Positions 462-15,785 of a DNA stretch of 64,000 nt are shown one piece after another; the first letter of the stretch is position 1; every line of letters starts with the position of its first letter. The notes below the pieces were generated by a model. The model worked only from the letters and a program-made list of their open reading frames with translations, ran no database searches and was not told the origin of the DNA. Source of the DNA: Nitrospirota bacterium (GTDB lineage: Bacteria; Nitrospirota; Thermodesulfovibrionia; UBA6902; DSMQ01); the NCBI GenBank assembly GCA_016208855.1, contig JACQXF010000078.1, positions 3,491 through 67,490 on the forward strand, read 5' to 3'. Both the position numbers and the translations under genes were made by a program.

Positions 462-1886
462 TTAGTTTTTAGCTGCTATCTTACTCTGCGAAAGAATCTT
501 CACATAAGAAACTATATCTGCCATATCCTGCTCTGAAAGCCCCACGCCTGCCTTGCCAAAAGGCACCATCGGCGTGCCTGTTCTTCCGTCACGGACTGTC
601 ACAGCTAAAAATTCCGGATCTGCAGACTGGGTCACGGGATTCCTCAGGTTTATCCCGAGAAAGCCTGCTCCTCCTTTGCCGTCTTTGCCATGACAAAGGG
701 CGCAGCGGATGTTATAAAGTGTTTCGCCGCGCTTTGTATCAGTCTTAAAGCCTGCAAAATTAAACCTGGGCGCCCCGCCTGCCGGCCTCTCTTTGGCTAT
801 ATAGCCGACTATCTTATCTATATCCTGCTCTGAAAGTCCTGCTGCAGACGGCTTCCATGACGTCATCTGCGTGCCCTCACGTCCTTCACTAACAGAGCTC
901 TTCAGAAATTTATTATCAGCAATTCTAAGAAACGCTGGATTCATAATCGCAGGGATTGTGCGGTTAAATATCTCGTCAAAATAACTCTCCTTGCCTGCGG
1001 TATGGCAGGCGACGCAGTACTTCTTATATAAAGCGTCGCCGTCAAGCTCTGCCTCAAGAGACGGCCTTATGCGCCTGTATTCTCTCGGCATCTCTGTTGA
1101 CGTTATAGTCAGCACATATGTTGCAAGTGCGTCTGCTTCTTCCTCATTAAGAATTACCTTCATCTCGCTCTCAGGGACAAGCGCCCTCGGGTCAAGGAAA
1201 TGCTCCTTATGCCATGTATATTGAGTAGCCTCTCCCTTTATATGCCTCATAGGAAAATAAATCCTTGGCTGTGAACCTATTCCGTCAAGTACCTTACCTA
1301 AAACGCCTCCTACACCATCAACCTTGTGGCAGCCCCTGCAGCCCTTCTCATTAAAGAGCTTTCTGCCCTTGACAACCTTATCTGCTCCGTTCTTCTCAAG
1401 CATATTATAGTCATGGCACTGCGCGCATGAGCTCTGAATATACTTAACAGGCACTATCGGATAGTCATAATGCGCGTCATGCTCTACGGCATGGGCGTCT
1501 TTTGTGGTGGTTACCCTGCCCTGCCCGCCGTGGCACGAGGTGCAGCCGAATCTTGCAATAGGGTGTTTATCAAGGTAATTACCGCTATGCGTTTTATACG
1601 GAACCGCTTCCTTTGCCATCATCGGGTTTTCAACCCCAATATGGCAGCTTATGCACCTGTCAGCACTGTTGAGTTTATCAACATATATCTGCTGAAGTTC
1701 AATCTTAAATGCCTTGGCCTTTGCCTTTATAGTCTCGTCTTTGGCATTTTTCATATAGAGCTCTTTATATTTAGCCTGATACTTCTTCCATTCAGGCGTA
1801 AATTCTTTGTAGCCGGCAATAAGGACAAATATTAAAAGAACAATTGAAGACCACATTAGCAGTCCGGAATAAAACCTTCTATTCAT
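462..1886 (-). CDS. Membrane-anchored hexaheme cytochrome c, the cytochrome c subunit of a Rieske/cyt b complex
   Basis: 474 aa with an N-terminal TM helix and six CxxCH motifs (CISCH, CTSCH, CAQCH, CRGCH, CVACH, CALCH). The last two sit in class-I-like domains. It is adjacent to and co-directional with cytochrome b. Confidence 0.8.
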   Translation of the reverse strand: MNRRFYSGLLMWSSIVLLIFVLIAGYKEFTPEWKKYQAKYKELYMKNAKDETIKAKAKAFKIELQQIYVDKLNSADRCISCHIGVENPMMAKEAVPYKTHSGNYLDKHPIARFGCTSCHGGQGRVTTTKDAHAVEHDAHYDYPIVPVKYIQSSCAQCHDYNMLEKNGADKVVKGRKLFNEKGCRGCHKVDGVGGVLGKVLDGIGSQPRIYFPMRHIKGEATQYTWHKEHFLDPRALVPESEMKVILNEEEADALATYVLTITSTEMPREYRRIRPSLEAELDGDALYKKYCVACHTAGKESYFDEIFNRTIPAIMNPAFLRIADNKFLKSSVSEGREGTQMTSWKPSAAGLSEQDIDKIVGYIAKERPAGGAPRFNFAGFKTDTKRGETLYNIRCALCHGKDGKGGAGFLGINLRNPVTQSADPEFLAVTVRDGRTGTPMVPFGKAGVGLSEQDMADIVSYVKILSQSKIAAKN

Positions 1887-1933
1887 TTTCCTCTCCTCAC
1901 CTCAATCCTTAATTTAAAATTTAAAATTTTGAG

Positions 1934-3496
1934 TTAATGAACAGGCCAGTCCTTCTTTGACCAGTAGAAATCCCAGTTCGGGCCTCTCAGCTCTGTGCCG
2001 ACATATGTGAGTATCACAAAACTGACTAAGAACATTACAAACATGGCTATTGCGCCCATCCTCGTTGAGCCTGTCTTATTAATTATCATTAAAGACCATG
2101 CTGCCACAAAGCCGACCCACAGTGTGCCAGGATTTATTGCAATAATGACTAACTGCGGCACATCAGGCCACCATGTCCTTATCCATCCAAAATTTACTAT
2201 GAATACAAGCACGCCAATAAGCGCCGCTGTGCCGACAATAAATGATAGAAAAGCTATAACCTTGCCCTGTGTGTTTGAAAACCAGACTCCCACATAGCCT
2301 TCTTCCCTGTCAAGATAGGGTATTAATGCAAGCGCCACCAATGCCAGCGTCGGAAGCGCAATACCGCCCATAAACGCAGAATAAGAGACAAGCTCCTGAA
2401 GCCCTAAGAAATACCATGGGGCCTTGGCAGGGTTTTCAGGGATAATGGGGTTAGCAAGCTCTCTAAGCGGCGCGTCTATATATAGTGAATATACAAACAT
2501 GCCCGCAAATGTAAGCATAAAGACCGCAAGCTCTGCCCACATAAGATTAGGCCAGCTTAAGACAGCGTTTTCAATGTCATTATTAACTGCAGGCGTTCTG
2601 CCCTTGGCAAGCTCCATAAGTCCGTATGTCTTGTTGGTTGGGAATAGCCCGCCTTTTTTCTGAGGCGGCGCAAGGAACTTCTCGTCAGAGGGCCTTGGCT
2701 CAAACTCTTCAGGCCTTGTAAGGCCGCCGTCTTTACGTATCCTCCAGAAGTGAATGCCGAGAAAGATAATGAGTATAACAGGCAGAAACATTACATGAAA
2801 GAAATGAACCCTCGGAAGCGTTGCCTTCCCCGGAACTGTGCCGCCCAAGAAAAGCTCCTTCTGTAATCCTCCAAAATCAAAGTACTTCGTTACCCCAAGG
2901 ATGTCTGTAATTTCCACCGGCGAGCCTGCGATATTTGCGCCGATAACCATTGCCCAGTATGCAAGCTGATCCCATGGAAGCAGGTATCCTGAGAAGTTCA
3001 GTATAAATACCAGGACCATAAGTATAATTCCAACAATCCAGTTGAACTCCCTGCCCTTTTTATATGAGCTGGTGAAGAATACCCTTGCCATGTGAAGCAT
3101 GACAAAGAGTATCATTCCCTCTCCGGCCCATTTATGAATATTTCTTATGGTGTTGCCGCCAAAGACAACATACTTTATGTCTTTTACGGTATTGAATGCA
3201 TTCTCAATGGAGGGGTTGTAATATATCATAAGAAAAACGCCTGATACGAATGCAAAGAAGAAGAGAAAAAGAGAGATAAGCCCCATGCCAAATGTGTAAG
3301 CAGGCCTCAGGGTATTTATATGTGTCTTGGCGCCCTGAAGGTGGAGAAAAAAGTTATTCACCATCACGGCGGCCTTTGTCTTATCAGAGTCAAGCGTCTT
3401 GCTTCTTAGGACAGTGTTAGGAAGAAAGTTTATTATATCTTTCAGGTTTCCTATAAACTTGCCTATGCCGTTTTTATTTGATTCGCTCATGATCAC
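1934..3496 (-). CDS. Cytochrome b (fused b6/subunit IV-like, 520 aa) of a Rieske/cytochrome b complex
   Basis: Multiple TM helices, conserved cytochrome-b heme-ligand His, and a LLPWDQLAYWA region. An AGGAG RBS precedes the ATG. Confidence 0.85.
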   Translation of the reverse strand: MIMSESNKNGIGKFIGNLKDIINFLPNTVLRSKTLDSDKTKAAVMVNNFFLHLQGAKTHINTLRPAYTFGMGLISLFLFFFAFVSGVFLMIYYNPSIENAFNTVKDIKYVVFGGNTIRNIHKWAGEGMILFVMLHMARVFFTSSYKKGREFNWIVGIILMVLVFILNFSGYLLPWDQLAYWAMVIGANIAGSPVEITDILGVTKYFDFGGLQKELFLGGTVPGKATLPRVHFFHVMFLPVILIIFLGIHFWRIRKDGGLTRPEEFEPRPSDEKFLAPPQKKGGLFPTNKTYGLMELAKGRTPAVNNDIENAVLSWPNLMWAELAVFMLTFAGMFVYSLYIDAPLRELANPIIPENPAKAPWYFLGLQELVSYSAFMGGIALPTLALVALALIPYLDREEGYVGVWFSNTQGKVIAFLSFIVGTAALIGVLVFIVNFGWIRTWWPDVPQLVIIAINPGTLWVGFVAAWSLMIINKTGSTRMGAIAMFVMFLVSFVILTYVGTELRGPNWDFYWSKKDWPVH

Positions 3497-3502
3497 TCCT
3501 TA

Positions 3503-4006
3503 TTAAGCAACTTTAAATTTTGTCCCCTTCTTTACTTCCTTGCCTGCGTCTACAATAACGTTGCCGTCTTCATGCATGCTCACCTCAAGCCATGGCAGCG
3601 GACGCGGCGCAGGGCCTCCTATGACTTTTCCGTCCTCATTATATTTTGAGCCGTGGCAAGGGCACTGAAAACCCCACTCAGTGGGATACACAATGCATCC
3701 AAGGTGCGTGCATATTGCTGATATGGCAAAAAGCCCTTCGTTGTCTGCAAATATAAATACCTTTTTATCATCAAGCTTCTTTATAGTGCCTACAGGGAAC
3801 TCCTCAGGCTTTCCTATCTTAAATTTATGCGACTCCTCGTAATGAACAGTAGCCTTTGTAAACCTGACAAGCCCCAAAACAGCAGCTAATGAGGATACGA
3901 CTGCCGTGGCAATGCCTGCAAGCCCCAAGAAATCCCTTCTTGATACGCCTTCCTCTTTTCCTTTTTTATCAGGGTCTCTATGTGCACAATACATATTGTT
4001 ACTCAC
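3503..4006 (-). CDS. Rieske [2Fe-2S] iron-sulfur protein with a Tat signal
   Basis: CTHLGCIVYP...CPCHGSKY box I/II motifs and a twin-arginine SRRDFLGLAG. GTG start with a GGAGG RBS. Overlaps the upstream gene by 8 nt. Confidence 0.85.
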   Translation of the reverse strand: MSNNMYCAHRDPDKKGKEEGVSRRDFLGLAGIATAVVSSLAAVLGLVRFTKATVHYEESHKFKIGKPEEFPVGTIKKLDDKKVFIFADNEGLFAISAICTHLGCIVYPTEWGFQCPCHGSKYNEDGKVIGGPAPRPLPWLEVSMHEDGNVIVDAGKEVKKGTKFKVA

Positions 4007-5816
4007 CTGCCCATACCTCCTTAAATAAAAATCTCTCCATTGTTATTGCATCAACAGGGCACCTCTTTGCACAGAGCCCGCACCTGATGCATCTGTCTTC
4101 ATCTTTTATGATTGCCGAACCCTCTCCAACAGGGTCCTTGCCATATCTGACTTTATATAACTTAGCCAATGTCTCATCGCCCTTTATGCGGTCAAGGCTT
4201 ACAAGCCTGAAACAGTATTCAGGGCAGATATCAGCGCATCCGCCGCAGAGTATGCATTTGTCGCCGTCAAATATGGTATTGACAGCGCAGTTCAGGCATC
4301 TGCCTCCCTGCTCTTCTGCCATGCCTTTTTCAAAGCCTTTCTCAACAACATTAAATATGCTCTTTACCCTGTCAACTGCAGGCGTAGCCGGCACATGTTC
4401 TCTATGTAATTTCTCATAATCCCTGTACTGCGGGACCTCATTATCAGGAAGCTCTTTATGCAATTCATACTTATTTAGCGTGAGCTTCTGTTTGCTTATA
4501 TGCCCGTGTATTGCTATTGCTGCCTTCTTCCCGCTTGCCACCGCATCTATAACAAGCCTTGGCCCATAGGCAAGGTCCCCTGCAACAAAAAGCCCGGCCA
4601 AAGATGTAGAGACCTTATCCTCAGAGACCTTTATCATCCCTCTCTCTGTCATCTCAACATTGAGTCCGCAATTTTCAAGGAATGAAAAATCATATGCCTG
4701 GCCTATTGCAAAAAATACCGTGTCAGCAGGAATGGTTACTGTATCTGCCTCATCATACCTTGGGTTAAACCTTCCCTCAGAGTCAAATACAGAGATACAT
4801 CTCTTAAATGTCATTGACTTCACATTGCCGGACTCATCAGCGTCTACCCTGTGAGGGCCGTAGCTGTTAACCCTGTCAATTCCCTCTTCCTCGCCTTCCT
4901 CTATCTCAATCTTATCAGCAAGCATCTGCTCACGCGTCTCTATGCAGACAAGGGAAACATCCCTTACGCCCTTCTGCCTCATTGATGTCCTTGCCACATC
5001 ATAGGCAACGTTGCCTCCGCCTATAACAACTATCTTTGAGCCTATATTAACTTCTTTGCCTGTAAAAACATCTCTTAAGAAATCAACGCCTCCAAGGACT
5101 CCCTTATACTGAGCGCCTTCAATAGGAAGCATCCTTGACTTTTTTGCGCCCACTGCCAAAAGCACCGCAGCAGATTCATCGTATAGTTTTTTGAGCGGAA
5201 TATCCTTTCCTACCTGAACGCCGAGCTTTATCTCAACGCCCAATGCCTTTATTGCATCAATCTCTGCCTGAAGTATCTCTCTTGGAAGCCTGTAAGGGGG
5301 GATACCGACAGAGCACATACCGCCTGCTATATTTTCCATCTCATAAATCACAGGCTTATACCCCATCAGGGCTAATTCATGCGCACACGCAAGCCCTGCA
5401 GGGCCTGCGCCGATTATGGATATTGGCTTTGATGTGCCTTTGGCAATGCCTACGATTCCCGTGCCTTCGGTCTTGAATTTATTTGTGAAGTTATCTGCAA
5501 AGCCCTTCTTATCCTTATAAACCTCCGGGCCGTACTTCTCTGTAACAAAGCCTTTCAGCGCCCTTATAGATATAGACTCATCTATTGCGCCGCGTCTGCA
5601 CGCAGCTTCGCAAGGCGCGGCACAGATCCTGCCGCATATGGAAGCAAGGGGATTTGGCAGCCGCGCTATCCAGTAGGCCTTCTCGTAATCGCCCTCTGAT
5701 ATTGCCCTTACATAGCCGCGGGAGTCAGTGTTTACAGGACAACCTGTCTGACACTTTATATTTTGTCTCCAGAAGTTGTAATCAGGAATTACTACATGAA
5801 ATGTCTGCTTAGACAT
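3999..5816 (-). CDS. GltD/NfnB/SudA-like NAD(P)H-dependent FAD/Fe-S oxidoreductase with a C-terminal 2x[4Fe-4S] ferredoxin domain
   Basis: N-terminal Cys cluster typical of the glutamate synthase small subunit (CQTGCP...ICGRICAAPCEAACRR). Two Rossmann motifs (GAGPAGL, GGGNVAYD). C-terminal CILCGGCADICP and CIRCGLCAKRCP. First gene of the cytochrome operon. Confidence 0.8.
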   Translation of the reverse strand: MSKQTFHVVIPDYNFWRQNIKCQTGCPVNTDSRGYVRAISEGDYEKAYWIARLPNPLASICGRICAAPCEAACRRGAIDESISIRALKGFVTEKYGPEVYKDKKGFADNFTNKFKTEGTGIVGIAKGTSKPISIIGAGPAGLACAHELALMGYKPVIYEMENIAGGMCSVGIPPYRLPREILQAEIDAIKALGVEIKLGVQVGKDIPLKKLYDESAAVLLAVGAKKSRMLPIEGAQYKGVLGGVDFLRDVFTGKEVNIGSKIVVIGGGNVAYDVARTSMRQKGVRDVSLVCIETREQMLADKIEIEEGEEEGIDRVNSYGPHRVDADESGNVKSMTFKRCISVFDSEGRFNPRYDEADTVTIPADTVFFAIGQAYDFSFLENCGLNVEMTERGMIKVSEDKVSTSLAGLFVAGDLAYGPRLVIDAVASGKKAAIAIHGHISKQKLTLNKYELHKELPDNEVPQYRDYEKLHREHVPATPAVDRVKSIFNVVEKGFEKGMAEEQGGRCLNCAVNTIFDGDKCILCGGCADICPEYCFRLVSLDRIKGDETLAKLYKVRYGKDPVGEGSAIIKDEDRCIRCGLCAKRCPVDAITMERFLFKEVWAGE

Positions 5817-5918
5817 AACTCCTACTTAATTAAAATGCCCTTATAAGATTTAAGACAGAAAGAAGTTTAGACAACCTGCCCGCCTCTTTTCAGTAACTTA
5901 AGTCACAATTGTAAACCC

Positions 5919-6602
5919 CTATTGCTTTGTTGTCAAGAAACTCTTTAATTTTTCTTTGTCTATTTTAAGCCCCCTGATAGTGCTCTCCATAATAACCTTT
6001 TCCTTTTTCAGCCTTGACATTGTCCTTGAGACGACCTCCCTGACTGTGCCTGCCATAGATGCTATGTCGTGGTGGGTTACTGAAAGATATGCTATACCGT
6101 CTTCCTCAGGCTGTCTCTCCTCTGCAAGCCTCAAAAGAACCAAAGCTACCCTCTGCTCAACGTCCTTAAATGTAATGTCCTCTATAATGCCTGAGAGATA
6201 CTTTATCCTTCTGCAAAGCCCCTTTAGTATCTTAAAGCCTGTTTCGCTCATCCCGTTCTCAATGACTTCTTTAAAGTTCTCCTCCGGTATGGCTACAACG
6301 GTTGTGTTCTCCACACCCGACCTGCCGCCTGTAAGAAGAGGCGCACAGCAAAAATAATCGCCCTCTTTAAGCATCTTTATTATCAACTCTCTGCCGTCTT
6401 TGGATGTCTTAAATAATTTTATTGCGCCTTCCCTGATAATAAAGAAAAACTTAATCTCGTCTGACTCTTTAAACAGTACGTCATTCTTTGCTATCCTTTT
6501 AAGGCTTGCCTTTTGACCTAAGACTATGAGGTCTTCATCTCCAAGCCCTGAAAGACATGGCAGGATACGCAGTTGATAGTTTATCTCAGCAACTGAATTC
6601 AT
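5919..6602 (-). CDS. Crp/Fnr-family transcriptional regulator
   Basis: cNMP-binding beta-barrel followed by a C-terminal HTH (VREVVSRTMSRLKKE). Located immediately upstream of the cytochrome operon. Confidence 0.75.
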   Translation of the reverse strand: MNSVAEINYQLRILPCLSGLGDEDLIVLGQKASLKRIAKNDVLFKESDEIKFFFIIREGAIKLFKTSKDGRELIIKMLKEGDYFCCAPLLTGGRSGVENTTVVAIPEENFKEVIENGMSETGFKILKGLCRRIKYLSGIIEDITFKDVEQRVALVLLRLAEERQPEEDGIAYLSVTHHDIASMAGTVREVVSRTMSRLKKEKVIMESTIRGLKIDKEKLKSFLTTKQ

Positions 6603-6730
6603 AGGTAAATTAAGATAACTATTAATCCTAATTATGTCAACGCCAGCCTGATAGCCTGCCAGCCTGCTATATAAAACATCTGTCTATCAAGAATCGCTTA
6701 ATTTAGGTTAACAGTAATTATCAAGCCAAT

Positions 6731-8134
6731 TTAAATCATCCAGTACGGCAGCAAATAAATCAGAGTCTTATCTTCTTCAATTATGTCTGCGTCCTCAAAT
6801 CTTCCGACAAGCACGCCGACTTTTTCTTTCTCCTTTACAAGAAAACTCTTGATTCCTTTCAAATGTTTTGTCTGAATCTTTTTATCGCTTTTAATTTCTA
6901 TTGGCAGGAGCCTCTCGGGCGTATAAACAACAATATCAACCTCTTCTTTTGTCTTGGTCCGCCAGTAGTGAAGCCTCGACTCGCGCTTCATGGAAGACAT
7001 AATCGTATTGAACTTCTCTACAATTGCATTTTCCAAAATAATGCCATACTGCCCAAGTTTTTCTATCTGAGAAATACTGCCTAAATCAAGCAGGCTGTTT
7101 CTAATGCCGAGGTCTGTAAAATACACCTTCGGCGTCTTTAGTATTTCGCTTCTGATATTCCTTGAATATGTTGTAAGGTTTTTGATAATAAATGTCTTTT
7201 CAAGAAGCACGGAGTATCTCTTTACAGTGTCTACTGTTATTTCCAGTTGAGATGCGATATTTGAATAATTGAGAAGGTCTCCTATTCTTGATGCCAGCAG
7301 TTCCATAACCTTTTGGTAAACCCAGAGCTTATCTTCTTTTACAAGATTTCTGATGTCCTGCTCAAGATACGTATTTCTGTAATTTCTAAGGAGTATCTGT
7401 TTCTTTTCCGTATCTTTAGCAAGAACGACTGCCGGCAACCCTCCAGAAACCATGTATTCTTCAAAGAGTTTCTGTATTCTTTGTTTATAGGGCATTATTT
7501 CAGCCTGATATTTCTTTAAAGCCTTTTTATCCGGAGTTGTTTCTCCAAAAATAAACTGCCATATATTTTTCTTATCAGGGGGTGTAAATCCATGCCCTCT
7601 GAATATCTCAGCCTCAGAAAAAGGAGGAACAGGCACGGACAATACCCTGCCCGCAAGGCTTTCTTTTATCTGCGCTTTCAGTTCAAGGGAAGATGAGCCT
7701 GTCAGTATCCATTTGACAGGAAGCTTTAAATCATACAGGGACTTTATGTATTCAATAAAACCGGGAAGCTTTTGGACTTCATCAATAAAGACATAAATAA
7801 GTTTTTTCTGACGCTGAACTTCTTCTCCGAGGAATCTTTCAATTATTGTCAGGAACTTGTCAAAGGATGCAGAAAGCTCCTGTCTGAGCGAAAGGTCATC
7901 AAATGTAAAATAGAAAATCCTCTCCGGCTGAATATCTCTCTTAAGGAGATCTGAAATGAGCTGAAATACAAGGGTGCTTTTACCTGTCTGTCTTAATCCA
8001 AGAAGTGAAAGTATCTCCTTTTCTTTGATGAGTCTTAAAGCCATATCGTGTATATCACGAGCGATAATGTCTGGGGGTAAAGCAAAGGCGCCGCCTCTCC
8101 ACGCATTATAACTATAAAAAAGCCTCTCGTCCAA
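6731..8134 (-). CDS. AAA+ ATPase, COG1373 family (AAA_14 + DUF4143)
   Basis: Walker A GLRQTGKST, Walker B FIDEVQ. C-terminal DUF4143-like region. One of five paralogs in 7 kb. Confidence 0.75.
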   Translation of the reverse strand: MDERLFYSYNAWRGGAFALPPDIIARDIHDMALRLIKEKEILSLLGLRQTGKSTLVFQLISDLLKRDIQPERIFYFTFDDLSLRQELSASFDKFLTIIERFLGEEVQRQKKLIYVFIDEVQKLPGFIEYIKSLYDLKLPVKWILTGSSSLELKAQIKESLAGRVLSVPVPPFSEAEIFRGHGFTPPDKKNIWQFIFGETTPDKKALKKYQAEIMPYKQRIQKLFEEYMVSGGLPAVVLAKDTEKKQILLRNYRNTYLEQDIRNLVKEDKLWVYQKVMELLASRIGDLLNYSNIASQLEITVDTVKRYSVLLEKTFIIKNLTTYSRNIRSEILKTPKVYFTDLGIRNSLLDLGSISQIEKLGQYGIILENAIVEKFNTIMSSMKRESRLHYWRTKTKEEVDIVVYTPERLLPIEIKSDKKIQTKHLKGIKSFLVKEKEKVGVLVGRFEDADIIEEDKTLIYLLPYWMI

Positions 8135-8331
8135 AACTATATACCTCTCTAAACTTTCTTAAGATAATTTAGAGTATACTATAATAATTTATCAAAAGCA
8201 ACTTACTGTCAGGGGGAAATTAGCAGATAAACTTCTTATGCTGGACATATATATGCCTTGTATTTTAGCCAAAATTTAGCTATAATCACCCTGTATTTTA
8301 GCCATATCAATACTGAAAGGCGGGGATTTAA

Positions 8332-9660
8332 ATGCGCAGGGATATTGAGAAGGACTTAATTTTATGGAAATCACAAAAAGAGCGCTATCCTTTGATAATC
8401 AGAGGCGCTCGGCAAGTAGGTAAAAGTTATCTTATTGAGACATTCGGCAGGGCGCATTTTCAAAATCTTGTTGTTGTCAACTTTGAGTTTCAGCCCCAAT
8501 TAAAGGACTGTTTTAAATCTCTTGACCCATTTGAAATAGTCAATAAACTCCAGATGCTTCTGGGCACACAGATAAGAGCGGATAATACCCTGCTTTTTTT
8601 TGATGAGATACAAGAATGTCCACAGGCAATAATGTCTCTTAGGTATTTTAAGGAGAAGATGCCAGCGCTGGCTGTTATAGCAGCGGGCTCACTCCTTGAA
8701 TTTGCCATGAGAAGCCCAGACTTTCGGATGCCTGTCGGAAGAATTCATTTCCTTTATTTAGAGCCTTTGTCCTTTTCTGAATATCTTGACGCTACAGGCA
8801 ACGAGAAATTAAGGCAATTCCTCTCAGAAGTAAGTTTGACAGACGCAATTGATGATGTTATCCATAAGAAACTCCTTGAACTGCTTCGCATATATCTTAT
8901 TGTCGGCGGAATGCCCGCGGCGCTCAAGGAATATTTGGCAACAAAGGATTTGATGAACTGTCAAAGGATTCAGACAGCGCTTTTACAGATTTACAGAAGC
9001 GATTTTGGAAAGTATGCAAAGACTTCTCAGCATAAATACTTAGAAAAGGTGTTTAATGCCGCTCCTCGTTTAGCAGGGCAAAGGATAAAGTATTCAAGCA
9101 TTGACCCTGACACGCACTCAAGAGACTTGAAGAATGCGCTGAACTTGCTTGCCCTTGCAGGCATAGTTAAGCCGATATATTTAACAAAGGCTTCGGGGCT
9201 TCCACTTGGGGCGCAGATAAACGAGCAGAAATTAAAATTGAATTTTCTTGACGTCGGGCTAATGCAAAACGCCTGCGGCTTGCAAGGGCTGTTAATTACA
9301 GAAAATGATTTTATGCAGATAAATGCAGGCGCTGTCGCTGAACAATTTACAGGACAAGAGATAGCGGCATATTCTGACAAGCATCAAGAGAGGAGCCTTT
9401 ATTTTTGGGCGAGGGAGAAAAAGGGCAGCATGGCAGAGGTTGATTATGTCATAAATATCGGCGCAGATATTATTCCTGTAGAAGTGAAGTCTGGCAAGGA
9501 AGGCTGGCTTAAATCATTAAGGATGTTCATTGAGGAGAAAAACTCAAGGTTAGGGATACGGCTGTCTCAAGACAAGTTGTCCTATTATGATAAAATACTT
9601 TCCATCCCGCTTTATATGGCAGAGCAGATGACGAGATTAACAGAAGGTTTTCTAAAGTAA
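8332..9660 (+). CDS. AAA+ ATPase, COG1373 family (AAA_14 + DUF4143)
   Basis: Walker A GARQVGKSY, FFDEIQ. Divergent paralog of the neighbouring ATPases. Confidence 0.75.
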   Translation: MRRDIEKDLILWKSQKERYPLIIRGARQVGKSYLIETFGRAHFQNLVVVNFEFQPQLKDCFKSLDPFEIVNKLQMLLGTQIRADNTLLFFDEIQECPQAIMSLRYFKEKMPALAVIAAGSLLEFAMRSPDFRMPVGRIHFLYLEPLSFSEYLDATGNEKLRQFLSEVSLTDAIDDVIHKKLLELLRIYLIVGGMPAALKEYLATKDLMNCQRIQTALLQIYRSDFGKYAKTSQHKYLEKVFNAAPRLAGQRIKYSSIDPDTHSRDLKNALNLLALAGIVKPIYLTKASGLPLGAQINEQKLKLNFLDVGLMQNACGLQGLLITENDFMQINAGAVAEQFTGQEIAAYSDKHQERSLYFWAREKKGSMAEVDYVINIGADIIPVEVKSGKEGWLKSLRMFIEEKNSRLGIRLSQDKLSYYDKILSIPLYMAEQMTRLTEGFLK

Positions 9661-9766
9661 AGGAATTTATTTTCGTCACTGCACAATACTGAAGGCGCTT
9701 TCTGCTAACTCTTCTGCCATTTGTCAGTTAGTCCTTATTATTCATAAATTATTATTATTTTTATTA

Positions 9767-9904
9767 AGGAAGCTGGCAGGGTATAGTTTTGAGCGGATTT
9801 TTTTGCTGATAAGTTCAGACAGGATGTCTGAACAAGCAAACGCCTCGCAAACGCACAGGATGTGCGTTGAGAATGAGCCGAAAAATTATACCCTGCCAGC
9901 TTCC
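9767..9904. repeat. 138-bp element bounded by perfect 18-bp terminal inverted repeats, containing two hairpins with identical GGA loops
   Basis: The arm ggaagctggcagggtata at 9767-9784 is the reverse complement of 9887-9904. Internal hairpins are ttcagaca-gga-tgtctgaa and aacgcaca-gga-tgtgcgtt. Confidence 0.6.
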
Positions 9905-10098
9905 TTATAGTTTATGAATAATCTGGGTTAGATATGTGTCTACGTTTCTCGGAAAATAAAAACGCACCTGCCTCCAACTCACTTGACTACGAAATACCTG
10001 AAAGAGAGAGATAATATCAGCGAAGAAGTCGAAAAAATATGCAGTTTGTTAAGGAAGGAGCAATTAATGTTAATAAGTAAGCCCGACCCCATGCTCCC

Positions 10099-10809
10099 AT
10101 GCAGGTCGTGTTTGAAGAGTATTTAGAGAGGGGAGGTTTTCCCAATCTGTTTGGCATCAAAGAGCCTCTGCTTTGGAAGCGGCTTGCGAGAGAAGATATT
10201 GTTGAGAAGGTCATCTACAGGGATATGGTTGAGTTATATGATATAAAGAAACCCGAGGTGCTTGAAAGGCTTTTTTTGTATTTGACCGGCATAACATCCC
10301 AAATCCTGAGCGTCTCCAATATTGCAAACTCACTCGGCCTCAGCCGTGAATACACTGAAAAATATCTTTATTATCTGGAACAGGCGATTCTCATAAAGAG
10401 GCTAAATAAATACGCTAAATCGATTGGAAAGAGCATCAGAAGTTCTGAAAAGGTTCATGTTTTGGACAGCGGATTGATAAATGCATTTTCAAGAATTGAA
10501 ACAGGGCATGCAGTGGAGACAGTTGTTGCAAGCCACCTTTTAAGAGCAAAGGAGGCTGAAATATATTATTGCAGGGAGAGATATGAGGTTGATGTGGTGA
10601 TGGCAATTGGCAGGAAGCTATATCCAATAGAGATTAAATATAAAGACAATATTACAAAGCAAGATTTGAGAGGAGTTGAGGCTTTTTGCAAGTCGTTCAG
10701 TCCGAAAAAAACGATAATAGTAAGCCGTGATGTTTTTAAAGAGGAGACATTAAACGGCTGCAAAGCATTGTTTATTCCTGCATGGTTGTTTGTTTTGCTC
10801 ATAGGATAA
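10099..10809 (+). pseudogene. Truncated COG1373/DUF4143 ATPase lacking the N-terminal P-loop domain
   Basis: The 236 aa match only the C-terminal portion of the neighbouring ATPases (YRDMVELYDIKKPE..., DUF4143 part). There is no Walker A. The upstream 9.66-10.1 kb holds the IR element and no intact N-terminus. Confidence 0.55.
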
Positions 10810-11011
10810 AACAATGAGCATGAAAAAACGACGAATGGAACAATTTGATAATTAACGACTTATCCCCGTAAGATGGCACTTAATCCACCCAAACTTAAGC
10901 CGTCCAGTGGCTTTAGAAGTTTGCCTATTTACAGGCATAATCTGTGATCTATTACGGCACAAATTGTAAATGGCATTGACAATTTGTGCTTAAAAGGGTA
11001 GCATATTTTCC

Positions 11012-12163
11012 ATGATTAATAGAAATGCCCATAACGCCCTAAAACGCTTGGCGCGCGGTTTCCCTGTAGTGACGCTTACCGGCCCTCGTCAGTCAGGCAA
11101 AACAACACTTGCAAAGATGGCATTCCCTACCAAACCCTATATTTCTCTTGAGGACCCTGATATACGAAGCATGGCAGAGGAAGACCCCCGCGGACTTCTG
11201 TCCAAATTTCCTGATGGGGCCGTATTGGATGAGGTGCAGCGTGCCCCGCATCTCTTCTCTTACCTACAGACACATATAGATGCTGATATGCGTCCAGGCA
11301 TGTTTGTGCTGACAGGCTCACAACAGTTCGGCCTGCTGTCAGGCATAAGTCAGTCCCTTGCCGGAAGAGTTGGGATGGTGCAGCTTCTTCCATTTTCCAT
11401 CAGCGAACTGAAGGCTGCCAAACGCCTTCCAGCAACCCTTGATGAACTATTATTCAGAGGTCTCTATCCTCCAATTTATGACCGTGACATTATGCCAGGC
11501 GACTGGTTTGCGGGCTACATGACCACTTATATAGAGAGAGATGTTAGGCAGCTTATCAATGTGCGTGACATTTCCACCTTTCAGAGGTTTTTAAAGATGT
11601 GCGCTGCGCGGATAGGACAACTGCTTAACCTTTCTTCTCTTGCTGCTGACTGCGGCATTACCCACAACACGGCATCTGCATGGATATCTGTGTTGGAGGC
11701 GAGTTATATTGTATGCCTGCTCAGGCCGCATCACCGCAACTTCAATAAACGCCTTGTCAAGTCGCCCAAGCTGTACTTTGTGGACGCTGGATTTGCGGCA
11801 TGGTTGCTTGGAATCAGAGAGGCAGAATATATCTCTTTTCATGCCCAACGAGGCGCACTATTTGAAAATCTTGTAATAACTGAGTTTATAAAGGAATGTT
11901 TCAATCAGGGACGTCAGTCCAATCTCTTTTTCTGGCGCGACAGCAAAGGCCTGGGAATTGATCTGATATTGGAAGAAGGCGACAACCTAAAGCCTGTTGA
12001 GATCAAATCAGGACAGACTATTGTCCCGGAATTTCTTACCGGCTTGCAGAAATGGTCTGTCTTATCCGGAAATCCAAAACGTCCTGCTATGCTTATATAT
12101 GGCGGAGAGAGGGAACTTACTAAAGGGAACATTGCCATAATGCCATGGAAGAAATTGCCGTGA
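11012..12163 (+). CDS. AAA+ ATPase, COG1373 family (AAA_14 + DUF4143)
   Basis: Walker A GPRQSGKTT, LDEVQ. Confidence 0.75.
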   Translation: MINRNAHNALKRLARGFPVVTLTGPRQSGKTTLAKMAFPTKPYISLEDPDIRSMAEEDPRGLLSKFPDGAVLDEVQRAPHLFSYLQTHIDADMRPGMFVLTGSQQFGLLSGISQSLAGRVGMVQLLPFSISELKAAKRLPATLDELLFRGLYPPIYDRDIMPGDWFAGYMTTYIERDVRQLINVRDISTFQRFLKMCAARIGQLLNLSSLAADCGITHNTASAWISVLEASYIVCLLRPHHRNFNKRLVKSPKLYFVDAGFAAWLLGIREAEYISFHAQRGALFENLVITEFIKECFNQGRQSNLFFWRDSKGLGIDLILEEGDNLKPVEIKSGQTIVPEFLTGLQKWSVLSGNPKRPAMLIYGGERELTKGNIAIMPWKKLP

Positions 12164-12171
12164 CTCCTCTC

Positions 12172-12543
12172 TTATTTAGACATCAACAAACTGCCCAGAT
12201 TCTTCGTCTTATATACTGAGACGAAGATGAAAAGAAAAATGGCCGATAATCCTTTTTCAAAGCCTCCGCCAAGACTTCCGAGCATCTTTTTTGAGAGCGC
12301 AAGGGCAAGGCTTTCTTCAAGCGAAAGATTTGGCTTTGAAAGGCTGTATCCTTCGCTAAATACATAGCTGTCCTTCTGCCTGTCATAGACAAGAGGAAAG
12401 CCTGCCACCTGCAGTGTCTGTATATAGCGGTATGCCGTCCTCTCACTTACCTCAAGGTCGTTCATGAGGGTCTTGGATGTAACCTTCTCTTTTCCGTCAA
12501 TTTTATTGAGTATTGTTATCAGGGAATCAAACTTATAAGACAT
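12172..12543 (-). pseudogene. Truncated HTH/WYL-type transcriptional regulator (N-terminal DeoR-like HTH only)
   Basis: LMNDLEVSERTAYRYIQTLQVAGFPLVYDRQKDSYVF resembles the HTH_11 + WYL N-terminus. The ORF is only 123 aa with a non-homologous tail. Confidence 0.4.
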
Positions 12544-12622
12544 GGTGTATCCTCCGTATCTAATAATCTTAGAAGGATATTACCATATCTTACTGACAAC
12601 AGCCTGTCAGGAGGGATGGATG

Positions 12623-13909
12623 CTATCTATGAAGCTTATCAAAAAAGCTTTCGTATATCTTCCAGAATGGCAATATGTATATATTGTCTAACTGCCTTTC
12701 TGTGTCATAGGTTACGATGTATCCTTTATTAATATTGAATCTCTTCATTGTCATACGAAGCCCCTCTATTTCTCTATTGATATTTGGCTCTCCAATCTCA
12801 TATGAAACCTGAACTGCATACAGTCTCTTGCCTTTCTTTAAGATAAAATCGCATTCTTTGTGTTCCTGGTAAAAGTAGAGCTCCTCAAAACCATTTTTGA
12901 GAAACTCCGTATAAACGGCATTCTCCAAGAGCCTTCCTTTGTTGTCAGAAAACTTAAATGAAACTGTATTTAAGAAACTGTTGTCAACACAGTATGCTTT
13001 CTTTTTAGACCTTGATTGAACCTTAAGAGAATAGGAAAAATTTCTTATTTCATGCATAAGAAAGCTGTCCTCAAGAATACTAACAAAGTCTTTAATGGTG
13101 TTCTCGTTGCTTCCTATTGCCCGTGCAAGGCTGTTATAAGAATAGGACGCTGAAATATTTGAGACCAGATATAACGCAAGTTCCTTGAATGTCTTTATAT
13201 CTCTTATATTGCGGCTTGTAACGCAGTCTTTAAGAATTATTGTCTCATAATACGATAGGAGTATTTCTCTCTTTAAATCCGTATCTTTAGTTTTATATAC
13301 CTCAGGGAAAGAGCCATAAAATAAGATGTCATCCAGAATGTTTAATACTGTAGGTTTATTGCTAACAAGGTCTTTATATGTTTCTATGCCCTGAGCCTTC
13401 AGAGCCTCACGGAATGATAATGGATAAACATAATCTATTATATATCTGCCTGATAATAGTCTCGCATAACCTCCTTTCAGAAGAGACGAATTTGAACCTG
13501 TGATAAATATCTTTTTAAACATTTCAGCATCGTATGCGCTCTTGACAAATCTCTCCCAGCCAGATACATTCTGAACTTCATCAAGAAAGAGAAATCTTGT
13601 CTTTTTCCTTGTAATCTTCTCCGAGGTTTCAATGACCCTGTATAGCTCTTTTGCGTCTCTCCATACCTCAGAAAAGAAAGGGTCGTCAAGATTTACATAG
13701 AGAATGCTTTGGGACTCAATGCTCTCTAATAGGTGATTTATCAAAAGCTTAAAAAGGGTTGATTTTCCGCTTCTTCTTACCCCAAGCAGAACCTGAATTT
13801 CCTTTGCCTTTGTTTTTTTTATAATAGAGGCGAGCAAGTCACGATCAAATAGGGGAGCGTATTTCTTCCCAAACCAATGCTTATTTTGTGTTATTATGGC
13901 TTGTTCCAT
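12623..13909 (-). CDS. AAA+ ATPase, COG1373 family (AAA_14 + DUF4143)
   Basis: Walker A GVRRSGKST, FLDEVQ. Confidence 0.75.
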   Translation of the reverse strand: MEQAIITQNKHWFGKKYAPLFDRDLLASIIKKTKAKEIQVLLGVRRSGKSTLFKLLINHLLESIESQSILYVNLDDPFFSEVWRDAKELYRVIETSEKITRKKTRFLFLDEVQNVSGWERFVKSAYDAEMFKKIFITGSNSSLLKGGYARLLSGRYIIDYVYPLSFREALKAQGIETYKDLVSNKPTVLNILDDILFYGSFPEVYKTKDTDLKREILLSYYETIILKDCVTSRNIRDIKTFKELALYLVSNISASYSYNSLARAIGSNENTIKDFVSILEDSFLMHEIRNFSYSLKVQSRSKKKAYCVDNSFLNTVSFKFSDNKGRLLENAVYTEFLKNGFEELYFYQEHKECDFILKKGKRLYAVQVSYEIGEPNINREIEGLRMTMKRFNINKGYIVTYDTERQLDNIYILPFWKIYESFFDKLHR

Positions 13910-14103
13910 TTTACTATTTTATGATTAGTAATTTCATATCATTATACTAATTATAATTAGTAATTTCCATATTTTCGTTCAATATCTATATTGAGAAGTC
14001 CATCTGTAAGGTTTAGTTGATACAATGAGAAAGCCGTTAAGGGGAGGATTATTTCTTAGGGGCTATTTATTAACCTTTGTAAAGGGTAAAAATCGCTTCC
14101 AGT

Positions 14104-14505
14104 TTATACTCGCCTTAAAAGCTTGTTCAGTTCTTCATCAAATGAAAATAGATGGTCGCCGCTATTTAGAGTCTTTGCAGCCAAAATACAATCCACAATG
14201 TCAACATTGCTATCAGAAAAAAGTGTCAATGCATGGATAAGCTCTCTCTGGTCGTCGTTAGCGATTCCTTTATAGTGCAGGATGTCTATTAAACTCCCCG
14301 CTGACTGTTCCTTGGGAACCTTGTATATCTTTGTCAGGACATAGACACACTCAGCAATAACGCTTTCAAGGATTATTGCCTTTTCGCTTCCGTTTTTGAC
14401 TTTATCAAAAAAGGCTTTAGATCTTGCATGCAGGGAGGCATTGTCGCCTATAAGATAGCGGACTATTGTGTTAGTGTCAGGAAGACTTTTTGCCGGTTTT
14501 TTCAC
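14104..14505 (-). CDS. vapC: PIN-domain toxin (VapC-like)
   Basis: Acidic PIN residues (PDTN, DIVD, SFDEE). Overlaps the upstream antitoxin gene. Probable GTG start. Confidence 0.7.
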   Translation of the reverse strand: MKKPAKSLPDTNTIVRYLIGDNASLHARSKAFFDKVKNGSEKAIILESVIAECVYVLTKIYKVPKEQSAGSLIDILHYKGIANDDQRELIHALTLFSDSNVDIVDCILAAKTLNSGDHLFSFDEELNKLLRRV

Positions 14506-14731
14506 GCACCGCTTCCCCCCACGCCTTGTCTTTCATCTGTTTCATTGTCATGTCAGGCCTAAGATTTTTTGCGTATTCTCTTAGGGAACCAGCCGCATCC
14601 CGAACCGGCTTTACTGTAACAGTATCATCTTCAACTTCAAAATAAACCGTGTTTGTCTTAAGTTTATCCCTTATTTCCTTAGGAATCGTAACCTGACCTT
14701 TGCTTGTTATCTTTACTGCCGCTGTTGTCAT
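14477..14731 (-). CDS. vapB: AbrB/MazE/SpoVT-family antitoxin (VapB-like)
   Basis: N-terminal swapped-hairpin motif KGQVTIPKEIRDKL. 84 aa. Overlaps vapC by 29 nt. Confidence 0.65.
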   Translation of the reverse strand: MTTAAVKITSKGQVTIPKEIRDKLKTNTVYFEVEDDTVTVKPVRDAAGSLREYAKNLRPDMTMKQMKDKAWGEAVREKTGKKSS

Positions 14732-14908
14732 TTATTCTTACCTTACCTTTATATTATGTATTACTTAATAAAATAGTAATGCTTATTGATACTTTTGTCA
14801 ATAGAACAAATTGCCATCAAAAATCTATATGAAACCGAGTGGTTCTTTTGACTTCTCTGTCTTAACAAATGTATTATTATTTAAAATTAAAAACCGAGGA
14901 ATTTATAA

Positions 14909-15785
14909 TATGGCAAAGGCTTTAAAATTAGGACTTCCAAAGGGCAGCCTTCAAGAGGCGACACTAAAGCTCTTTAAAAAAGCAGGCTATCATATAAATG
15001 TATCAAGCCGTTCCTATTATCCTGTTTTTGATGACCCTGAGATAGGCTCAATGCTAATCAGGGCGCAGGAGATGGCAAGATATGTAGAGGATGGCCATCT
15101 GGACTGCGGGCTTACAGGACTTGACTGGGTGCTTGAGCAGGATGCGGATATTGTTGAGGTTTCAGAGTTGATTTATGGTAAGGAAGGATTCCGCCCTGTT
15201 AAATGGGTTATTGCTGTCCCTGTTGACTCAAAGGTAAAGTCCGTTAAAGACCTTCAGGGCAAGCGCATTGCCACTGAGCTTGTAGAGTTTACTAAAAGAT
15301 ACCTTAAATCAAAAGGGGTAAAATCGGATGTAGACTTCTCATGGGGCGCAACCGAGGTAAAGCCCCCTAATCTTGCCGATGCAATAGTTGAGCTCACAGA
15401 GACAGGCACATCTCTAAGGGCTAATAATCTGAGGATAGTTGAGACAATACTTGAATCCACTACCCGCTTTATTGCAAACAAAAAGGCGTGGCAGGACAAA
15501 TGGAAACGGCAGAAGATGGAGAATATCGTGCTACTGCTGCAAGGCGCCTTGGCAGCAGAAGATAAGGTTGGTCTTAAAATGAACGTACAGGAGGCATCAT
15601 TTAAAAGAGTAATGAGCCTGCTTTCTTCCCTGCACTCTCCTACAATCTCCCAGCTCTCTGATAAAGGATGGTATGCCCTTGAGGTTATAATCAAGGAAGG
15701 GCTAGTGCGCGACCTTATCCCTAAGCTCAAGTCAGCAGGCGCAGAGGGTATTGTGGAGTATCCGCTGAATAAAGTAATTCCATAG
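14909..15785 (+). CDS. hisG: ATP phosphoribosyltransferase (long form)
   Basis: [16 protein letters not shown]...[19 protein letters not shown] precedes the ATG at 14909. The ORF-track start at 14811 is an upstream in-frame extension. Confidence 0.85.

Follow-up and report, generated by a model that had tools for sequence, protein, structure and literature searches.

The window examined here is the whole 64-kb stretch of contig JACQXF010000078.1 from a Nitrospirota bacterium, and its subject is an 8-kb island (6731–14731) between a crp/fnr gene and hisG that harbors four intact AAA_14+DUF4143 ATPase genes and a fifth, 5′-truncated one. The intact genes are A (6731–8134, minus strand, 467 aa, TTG start), B (8332–9660, plus strand, 442 aa), D (11012–12163, plus strand, 383 aa, GC content 0.478) and F (12623–13909, minus strand, 428 aa), in all of which Pfam places AAA_14 before DUF4143 in the N- to C-terminal direction with 79 to 163 bits against gathering cut-offs of 27 to 28. 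Gene C (10084–10809, plus strand) matched DUF4143 only, in a 236-aa open reading frame (ORF) counted from its first ATG at 10099. A sequence-only reading of this DNA had counted four intact and one N-terminally truncated DUF4143 ATPases in 7 kb, which the Pfam assignments bear out, and had placed them on alternating strands, which does not strictly hold as the order A, B, C, D, F is −, +, +, +, −. All five proteins also match models of the candidate defense system PDC-S01 in PADLOC as a single-gene system (E-values of 1e-37 to 1e-150), the best model being PDLC04790 for A (2e-70) and D (1.4e-99), PDLC04788 for B (2.5e-150), and PDLC04787 for F (4.9e-108) and C (6.7e-37, partial). Because the background of AAA_14+DUF4143 genes is only 3 copies per 1.23 Mb, as measured in unrelated hisG-anchored loci, the five copies in about 7 kb form a real cluster that lies far beyond chance. 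A profile built from the five copies identified no sixth family member within the window.

The five copies share 19 to 33% pairwise identity, in agreement with the strong divergence described earlier, and all of the Walker A strings quoted at that time were found: GLRQTGKST (A), GARQVGKSY (B), GPRQSGKTT (D) and GVRRSGKST (F). The Walker B motif hhhDE[VI]Q is intact in the same four proteins, and residues G24, R26, G29, K30, D73 and E74 are invariant between subfamilies. For gene A, the NCBI protein call of 437 aa is shorter than the 467-aa form starting at 8134; the longer form with the TTG start was adopted because of the 467-aa homologues (62–86% identical), the conserved TTG and an upstream GAGAGG. 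Gene C is a clean 5′ truncation, with homology beginning at 10084–10108, which corresponds to residue ~185–191 of F-type proteins. No AAA_14 remnant was present upstream of C in any frame, and the comparison of upstream repeats revealed no promoter/repeat region of the kind that precedes the intact copies. C keeps the winged helix and nuclease parts only and is probably a pseudogene.

Origin of the five copies

Relatives much closer than the neighboring copies were identified elsewhere. Those of D share 70–87% identity and come from metagenome-assembled genomes labeled Nitrospiraceae, Brocadiaceae and Deferrimicrobiaceae as well as from Trichlorobacter, those of F share 50–90% identity and come from Bacteroidales, Chlorobi, Legionellales and Elusimicrobia, and those of A share 62–86% identity and include Nitrospirota, Desulfobacterium and a partial Methanosarcina protein. 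The best relative of B was 52% identical, in a search that gave 10,350 representatives of 50%-identity clusters with E ≤ 1e-3. The ratio of nonsynonymous to synonymous substitution rates (dN/dS) was not computable among the five copies because synonymous sites are saturated at 19–33% identity, and it was determined in its place against the nearest orthologues with DNA, giving 0.107 and 0.069 for D, 0.085 for F and 0.093 for A. As the counterparts of A, D and F elsewhere are far closer than the island copies are to one another, and as dN/dS is low, these genes belong to subfamilies that are old and held under purifying selection, and they reached the island separately. The five copies are an accumulation, not a DIVERSIFYING array. 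The proposal of a rapidly diversifying paralog cluster consequently fails, with counterparts of A, D and F at 75–90% identity at unrelated loci and dN/dS of 0.07–0.11.

Close homologues are solitary among unrelated genes, which include efflux pumps and a sensor kinase (L085), cell-wall, SecG, TIM and tRNA-synthetase genes (L086–L089), a two-component system (L090), ACT and ABC genes (L091), ftsW (L172), and lysyl-tRNA synthetase and murB (L180). No WYL gene, toxin–antitoxin pair or transposase was a conserved neighbor in the homologue contexts examined. The WYL gene and vapBC were accordingly rejected as conserved partners of the ATPases, as neither is a constant neighbor in those contexts.

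Loci with more than one copy were also observed, namely L049 with two D-like genes, L173, L178, and the Segatella plasmid L176 with several. A second copy lay within 5 kb in 5 of 80 D-type loci, about 5-fold over the hisG-locus background (binomial p ≈ 0.03). Numerous plasmids also carry relatives (383 and 59 records). In viral contigs, scans with single D and F sequences gave no matches, and a phage collection contained only 11 records with D-like genes, all of them uncultured “Bacteriophage sp.”

Two of these loci are described here in their own right. L173, from a Desulfobacterium chromosome, carries a defense/mobile-element island at 1749–15690, in which a second DUF4143 gene, hicAB, a gene for a group II intron reverse transcriptase and those for an AbiV-type HEPN protein and GmrSD lie within a few kilobases of an A-type gene; an ORF6N protein gene and a fragment of a Y1 transposase gene are also present. 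L178, a contig from a lake metagenome, shows at 6001–8997 an F-type gene (73% identical to F) followed directly by an A-type gene (75% identical to A), each behind the putative operator of its subfamily; both subfamilies are likewise found together in the window.

Conserved promoter-plus-gene units and their putative operators

The flanks of A, D and F were aligned with the flanks of orthologues from unrelated contexts. Similarity starts about 65–70 bp before the start codon and ends at the stop codon, with an upstream identity of 59–83% over −1 to −70 and a background of 14–42% further out. What is conserved is thus a single ORF preceded by about 70 bp of promoter DNA with a subfamily-specific repeat.

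Each intact gene carries a repeat of its own type. Upstream of A, a dyad CTCTAAA-N14-TTTAGAG (8147–8174, minus strand), regarded as a putative operator, lies between a −10-like TATAGT and the Shine-Dalgarno sequence and TTG start. The 70 bp upstream of A are conserved with L172, L173 and L178g2, in which the dyad reads CTCGAAA...TTTCGAG, so that both arms have changed and the symmetry has been kept in a compensatory manner. Gene B is preceded by two direct repeats TGTATTTTAGCCA (8259–8271 and 8292–8304, plus strand), which flank a −10 TATAAT at 8281–8286, and B-like plasmid genes (L175, L176 and L177) have two to three upstream repeats, each with its own sequence. The putative operator of F is a perfect 18-bp palindrome, TACTAATTATAATTAGTA (13945–13962, minus strand), that overlaps a −10 TATAAT and is accompanied by a half-site, TACTAATCA (13922–13930, minus strand). 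This palindrome is conserved in L090, L091, L178 and L180, down to 56% protein identity. At L180 (about 5910–6000; 56% identity to F), two full 18-bp palindromes about 35 bp apart are present rather than a palindrome and a half-site.

The putative operator of D is a 35-bp dyad, GGCACAAATTGTAAATG-G-CATTGACAATTTGTGCT (10956–10990, plus strand), overlapping the −35 TTGACA at 10976–10981. The −10 hexamer, TAGCAT, has its last base at 11004 and lies 7 nt ahead of the ATG; a Shine-Dalgarno sequence is absent. Throughout the D-type genes of L085–L096 and the window, the −10 hexamer ends 6–9 nt before the ATG with no Shine-Dalgarno sequence. As the −10 lies so near the ATG and the Shine-Dalgarno sequence is absent, the D-type mRNA is probably leaderless.

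A metagenome scan supplied 80 additional D-type loci of 51–83% identity, and 77 upstream regions could be used. In the 100 nt directly before these 77 genes, the best inverted repeat had a mean of 10.1 matched nt, compared to 6.8 in the region from −400 to −300, 6.1 in coding sequence and 6.2 in shuffled sequence. At least 9 matched bases were found in 68% of the D-type upstream regions and in 11% (far upstream), 0% (coding) and 3% (shuffled) of the controls. The 35-bp dyad could be placed in one register at 70 of the 77 loci, and its inner half-site CAAATTG is nearly constant. At positions 14–16 from the center the pairs vary, being A·T in 27 and G·C in 32 loci at the first, T·A in 39 and G·C in 15 at the second, and T·A in 25, G·C in 14 and A·T in 14 at the third. 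The complementarity at these positions, with the register chosen sequence by sequence, was 0.79–0.84 versus 0.32–0.46 for shuffled partners, and 0 of 500 shuffles reached the observed value. The predicted recognition helix of the protein also follows the operator class, with HNTA[S/A][A/S]W pairing with CACAAATTG, HNTAKAW with GGCTAATTG and [H/A]VTAREW with TACAAATCGAA. Within the window, the cognate D and F sites were present at their own genes only.

Predicted protein architecture and likeness to known systems

The domain organization was examined with an AlphaFold2 model of D based on a mixed-subfamily alignment (pLDDT 92.2, pTM 0.91). The model consists of a P-loop domain (residues 1–135), a helical domain (143–182), a winged helix (187–256) with its recognition helix at 218–230, and a C-terminal domain (271–383) with the α-β-β-β-α-β core of the PD-(D/E)xK fold. 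In this last domain the predicted catalytic residues are E285, located on helix one, D317 on strand two, and E330-x-K332 on strand three. The first three domains have the arrangement of the switch module of STAND (signal transduction ATPases with numerous domains) NTPases, and their closest structures are 2qen/2fna, NLRs and Cdc6/Orc1; for the nuclease domain the nearest matches are Can2, McrC, Cap4 and Shedu. Sequence searches of the PDB, for which A and D served as queries, turned up nothing meaningful. According to the model, the protein joins a STAND/Orc-like NTPase, with its helical and winged-helix parts, to a PD-(D/E)xK nuclease. Structure prediction, which had been suggested as a check for nuclease or winged-helix folds, returned both.

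The catalytic E...D...(D/E)-x-K pattern is present in A (E...D...IEIKS), B (D...VEVKS), C and D, and it is kept in the D and A families. F differs in showing ECDF...VQVSYE and has no E-x-K. All 120 listed relatives of F have ECDF...Q-V-(S/C/A)-Y-E in the place of E-x-K, with KECDF...YE strongly conserved. As this motif is found across the whole F subfamily, it is a conserved variant and not decay, and from these residues the F subfamily may have either a non-canonical active site or be a nuclease-dead branch.

Neither the Pfam scan nor the model showed a C-terminal repeat sensor of the TPR, LRR or WD40 type in these proteins of 383–467 aa, which at most act in the manner of a STAND switch and are not classed as Avs or NLR proteins. 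STAND NTPases such as Avs and NLR/Apaf-1/CED-4 exceed 1000 aa and carry such sensor repeats, whereas the island proteins have 380–470 aa without repeats, a C-terminal nuclease, and a winged helix that appears to have a sequence-specific DNA target. The structural neighbors 2QEN (PABY2304) and 2FNA (SSO1545) are archaeal PF01637 Walker-type ATPases of a different Pfam family with 17–18% identity; the match excludes the C-terminal nuclease of the island proteins, and 2QEN and 2FNA are also without an assigned function. Can2/Card1, Cap4 and McrC are PD-(D/E)xK effectors of type III CRISPR, of CBASS (cyclic-oligonucleotide-based antiphage signaling systems) and of type IV restriction, respectively. 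However, Can2/Card1 and Cap4 are switched by CARF or SAVED sensors of cyclic oligonucleotides and McrC by the separate GTPase McrB, and not by a fused STAND-like NTPase.

The upstream repeats resemble those of other self-controlled modules. In controller proteins of restriction–modification (RM) systems with their C-boxes, in antitoxin operators and in the WYL regulators BrxR and CapW, a dyad or repeat operator overlaps the module's own core promoter, as is the case here. As in self-repressed modules, the operator specificity of the island genes co-varies with the protein. The difference is that RM, antitoxin and WYL modules use a separate small regulator, whereas the proposed repressor in the island, whose binding is putative, is a domain of the effector itself.

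With respect to PDC-S01 (COG1373; AAA_14 PF13173 and DUF4143 PF13635), the island genes have the same ATPase and PD-(D/E)XK architecture and are likewise single-gene units of patchy distribution. There is no difference in kind, and what is unusual is the presence of five members of differing sub-models in 7 kb. DUF4143 was listed as PD-(D/E)XK already in 2012 (PMC3424549), and the published description of PDC-S01 is that of a PD-(D/E)XK domain joined to an ATPase (PMC12988326). PDC systems were proposed because their members sat embedded in BREX, DISARM or type I RM loci, and 145 PDCs were explicitly left as untested candidates (10.1101/2024.01.29.577857). A 2026 survey ranked PDC-S01 as the fourth most common “defence” in prokaryotes, with 9,986 archaeal and 29,494 bacterial instances (PMC12988326). 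The locus therefore adds no new kind of system and is a new, unusually dense instance of a known candidate; the cassette and operator structure is absent from the published description of PDC-S01. A defense role for AAA_14+DUF4143 genes is plausible, with the standing of a published candidate and not of a result.

Setting of the island and its possible explanation

The island is bounded by chromosomal genes on both sides, a Crp/Fnr-family regulator gene on the left (5919–6602, minus strand; Pfam cNMP_binding and HTH_Crp_2) and hisG on the right (14910–15785, plus strand; Pfam HisG and HisG_C), followed by hisC and hisB. The relatives of HisG place the organism in Nitrospirota/Thermodesulfovibrionales. 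The remaining genes of the window are ordinary chromosomal ones, encoding a cytochrome bc-type complex, GGDEF protein, purH, acyl-CoA ligases, a chemoreceptor and a ketoacyl synthase. Upstream of crp, a respiratory-type cluster at 462–5816, entirely on the minus strand, encodes a multihaem cytochrome c, cytochrome b and a Rieske protein, together with a 605-aa ORF that was taken, by its sequence, for a putative GltD-like Fe-S flavoprotein. No tRNA gene was found in the window and no transposase among the island ORFs examined.

Next to hisG, the island contains vapB (14477–14731, minus strand, 84 aa; Pfam MazE_antitoxin, 1.5e-9) and vapC (14104–14505, minus strand, 133 aa; Pfam PIN, 1e-11). The gene for the MazE/AbrB-type antitoxin precedes that for the PIN-domain toxin with a 29-nt overlap, which is the gene arrangement of a VapBC type II toxin–antitoxin pair as predicted from sequence. 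Gene E (12172–12543, minus strand, 123 aa) is the remnant of a WYL-type regulator, with an N-terminal HTH_11 only (3e-9) and a match to positions 5–90 of the 229 in the PADLOC WYL model. Its homology to WYL regulators stops near residue 93 (~12264), and no remnant of the WYL domain is present downstream of E or beyond D. The ~80–100 bp between the end of D and this loss of homology (12164–12264) encode the unrelated C-terminal 25–30 residues of E. Both the vapBC module and the WYL/HTH regulator fragment had been named by the sequence-only reading and are upheld.

A further feature is a nested inverted repeat of 186 bp without an ORF, detected in an inverted-repeat search (9737–9922, no strand assigned) and referred to here as the hairpin element. 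Its inner arms (9765–9790 and 9882–9907) are 26 nt long and 96% complementary, its outer arms lie at 9737–9752 and 9907–9922, and it includes two internal hairpins; the predicted fold has −89.7 kcal/mol (z = −11). Inside it, at 9830–9880, the two short hairpins GTTCAGACAGGATGTCTGAAC and ACGCACAGGATGTGCGT have the loop-spanning motif ACAGGATGT in common. The element is short and non-coding with terminal inverted repeats, and therefore has the shape of a miniature inverted-repeat transposable element (MITE). No Rfam match was obtained within 5800–15000, no clear target duplication was seen at the element, and no other copy was found in the window, in 171 loci or in viral contigs. Because no second copy was found, the term “MITE-like” used previously stands as a description of shape and not as a verified identity. 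A 26-nt segment between crp and the end of gene A (6651–6676) resembles an arm of the element (9759–9784/9882–9907) with 81% identity and the core CCTGCCAGC. This resemblance is probably due to chance, resting on a single 9-nt exact seed, about the chance expectation in the region; if it were real, related repeats would bracket A and B.

The GC content of the genes ranges from 0.359 (F) to 0.478 (D) around a window average of 0.436. With this range, a broken regulator, a broken paralog and a toxin–antitoxin pair amid ordinary chromosomal genes, the locus has the look of a variable or accessory region, as had been supposed. Exact-protein look-ups of D and HisC returned the same strain only, in two Logan runs (SRR12113402/06), and those of HisG and Crp returned no match. 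Comparison of the window with the Logan contigs showed one single-nucleotide polymorphism in 5.4 kb and no structural variation. This lone substitution, at 10571 (G/T), is non-synonymous and falls in truncated C.

We favor, with a probability of about 55%, the explanation that a hotspot has accumulated independent, probably self-repressed ATPase–nuclease cassettes together with debris, the hairpin element and vapBC. Evidence supports the cassette structure and independent acquisition, and the self-repression is what we infer. Five single-gene cassettes would have been acquired separately by an accessory hotspot in a Thermodesulfovibrionales-like chromosome, each intact one being autonomous, with its own ~70-bp promoter carrying a subfamily-specific repeat and then one ORF. 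The winged helix would bind the dyad or repeats of its own promoter and repress its own gene. Self-binding and self-repression are the simplest reading because only the ORF, which encodes the winged helix, travels with each repeat. Since the operators differ between subfamilies, stacked subfamilies would not interfere with or cross-regulate each other. By analogy to STAND and AAA+ switches and to NTPase-coupled PD-(D/E)xK immune effectors, ATP binding combined with a trigger, for which foreign DNA or an infection cue is the most plausible, may lead to oligomerization, which would bring the nuclease domains together for DNA cleavage. The target may be invading DNA, the host chromosome in abortive infection, or something else. 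The F subfamily, with Q-V-S/C instead of E-x-K, may act differently.

Several points limit this explanation or weigh against it. A HisG-anchored contig scan for synteny returned 80 loci, and in the 20 closest Nitrospirota/Thermodesulfovibrionales relatives (HisG 74–85% identical) the neighbors of hisG are wholly different, with even hisC and hisB absent; no close relative with the crp–hisG junction was found, and the scan is uninformative as regards the island. The complementarity of the D dyad is inflated because of the choice of register for each sequence, the correlation between helix and operator is confounded by shared ancestry, and some of the dyad conservation could stem from a host factor or from the promoter architecture by itself. 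Identities of 70–87% across phyla and dN/dS of ~0.1 indicate a conservation that is unusual for arms-race genes, and L173 was the only defense-rich context among the homologue contexts examined. In the only experiment found, carried out in E. coli B, four of eight candidates gave protection against T4, T5 or T7, and the single PDC-S01 representative was not one of these four (PMC12881386). No functional study of DUF4143, COG1373 or AAA_14 was found in the literature, in accordance with the earlier statement that the function of the family is not experimentally established, and no experiment ties the family to defense. The suggestion of a role in conflict with phages or mobile genetic elements was a reasonable guess that had already been published in the form of the PDC-S01 candidate, but protection in E. 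coli B was not seen.

The negative phage assay, the mostly non-defense neighborhoods and the strong conservation are the reasons for which two other explanations were kept. The cassettes may be selfish genes, mobile or addiction-like and of no benefit to the host, in which nuclease and DNA binding serve maintenance or spread. Their solitary, sharply bounded form with own promoter, putative operator and probably leaderless transcript agrees with such a nature, as do near-identical copies that occupy unrelated loci in different phyla and numerous plasmids (the 383 and 59 records above) and the tendency to pile up in hotspots. However, the cassette ends show no recombinase, terminal repeat or target duplication, there is no conserved partner antitoxin or methylase, the mechanism of movement is not evident, and purifying selection would be equally expected of a host-beneficial gene. 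Selfishness appears unlikely, although it is the strongest of the alternatives. Next in order, and also improbable, is a non-immune role as nucleotide-switched DNA-binding regulators or as DNA-repair or -processing factors, with the upstream repeats as their normal regulatory targets. The likeness of the NTPase–helical–winged-helix module to 2qen/2fna, NLRs and Cdc6/Orc1 would fit this, as would specific repeats adjoining the gene as in initiators and autoregulators, the high sequence conservation, the published negative assay (PMC12881386) and the F subfamily without E-x-K. It accounts less well for catalytic E/D/E-x-K residues kept in most subfamilies, for a nuclease domain nearest to the immune effectors Can2, McrC, Cap4 and Shedu, for a patchy distribution driven by horizontal transfer without conserved neighbors, and for cognate dyads that are not repeated elsewhere in the window.

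Local duplication of one ancestral ATPase gene followed by rapid diversification into an arms-race paralog array would explain why five family members are adjacent, and defense genes often diversify. It is nevertheless very improbable given copies that are 19–33% identical to each other and have orthologues elsewhere at 75–90%, a dN/dS of 0.07–0.11, and differing PADLOC sub-models, operators and GC content. The possibility that the ATPases are insertion-sequence helpers similar to IstB, TnsC or MuB and the island is transposon debris, raised as an alternative by the sequence-only reading, is scarcely credible, as the island lacks a transposase gene and the window a tRNA gene, only one homologue context examined contains a transposase with none linked in the others, and a C-terminal nuclease with a winged helix is unlike IstB or TnsC.

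The accumulation of separately acquired cassettes, as the favored explanation, has consequences for how such regions are read, in that “paralog clusters” in defense-type regions need not mean local diversification. PDC-S01 genes number tens of thousands in bacteria and archaea and rank among the commonest “defence” loci, with a mechanism that is not established. At this single locus the family is seen to be made up of old, orthogonal subfamilies, each moving as a minimal unit of promoter and gene. The comparison, which covered about 90 related loci, provides handles in the form of 18–35-bp putative operators, a recognition helix predicted for the protein, a domain model of high confidence in which the catalytic residues are named, and a natural variant of the nuclease motif in the F subfamily. 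On this basis we tentatively propose, as an idea that is somewhat more likely to be wrong than right, that DUF4143/PDC-S01 proteins may be self-repressing nucleotide-switch nucleases in which the winged helix doubles as a sequence-specific repressor of its own gene, the mRNA of which is often leaderless, operator and helix co-diversify so that the cassettes are orthogonal and stackable, and a trigger couples operator release with ATP-driven nuclease assembly. If true, the trigger would join a burst of expression upon operator release to the assembly of the nuclease, and this would provide a first mechanistic handle on a very abundant, uncharacterized candidate immune gene of bacteria and archaea.

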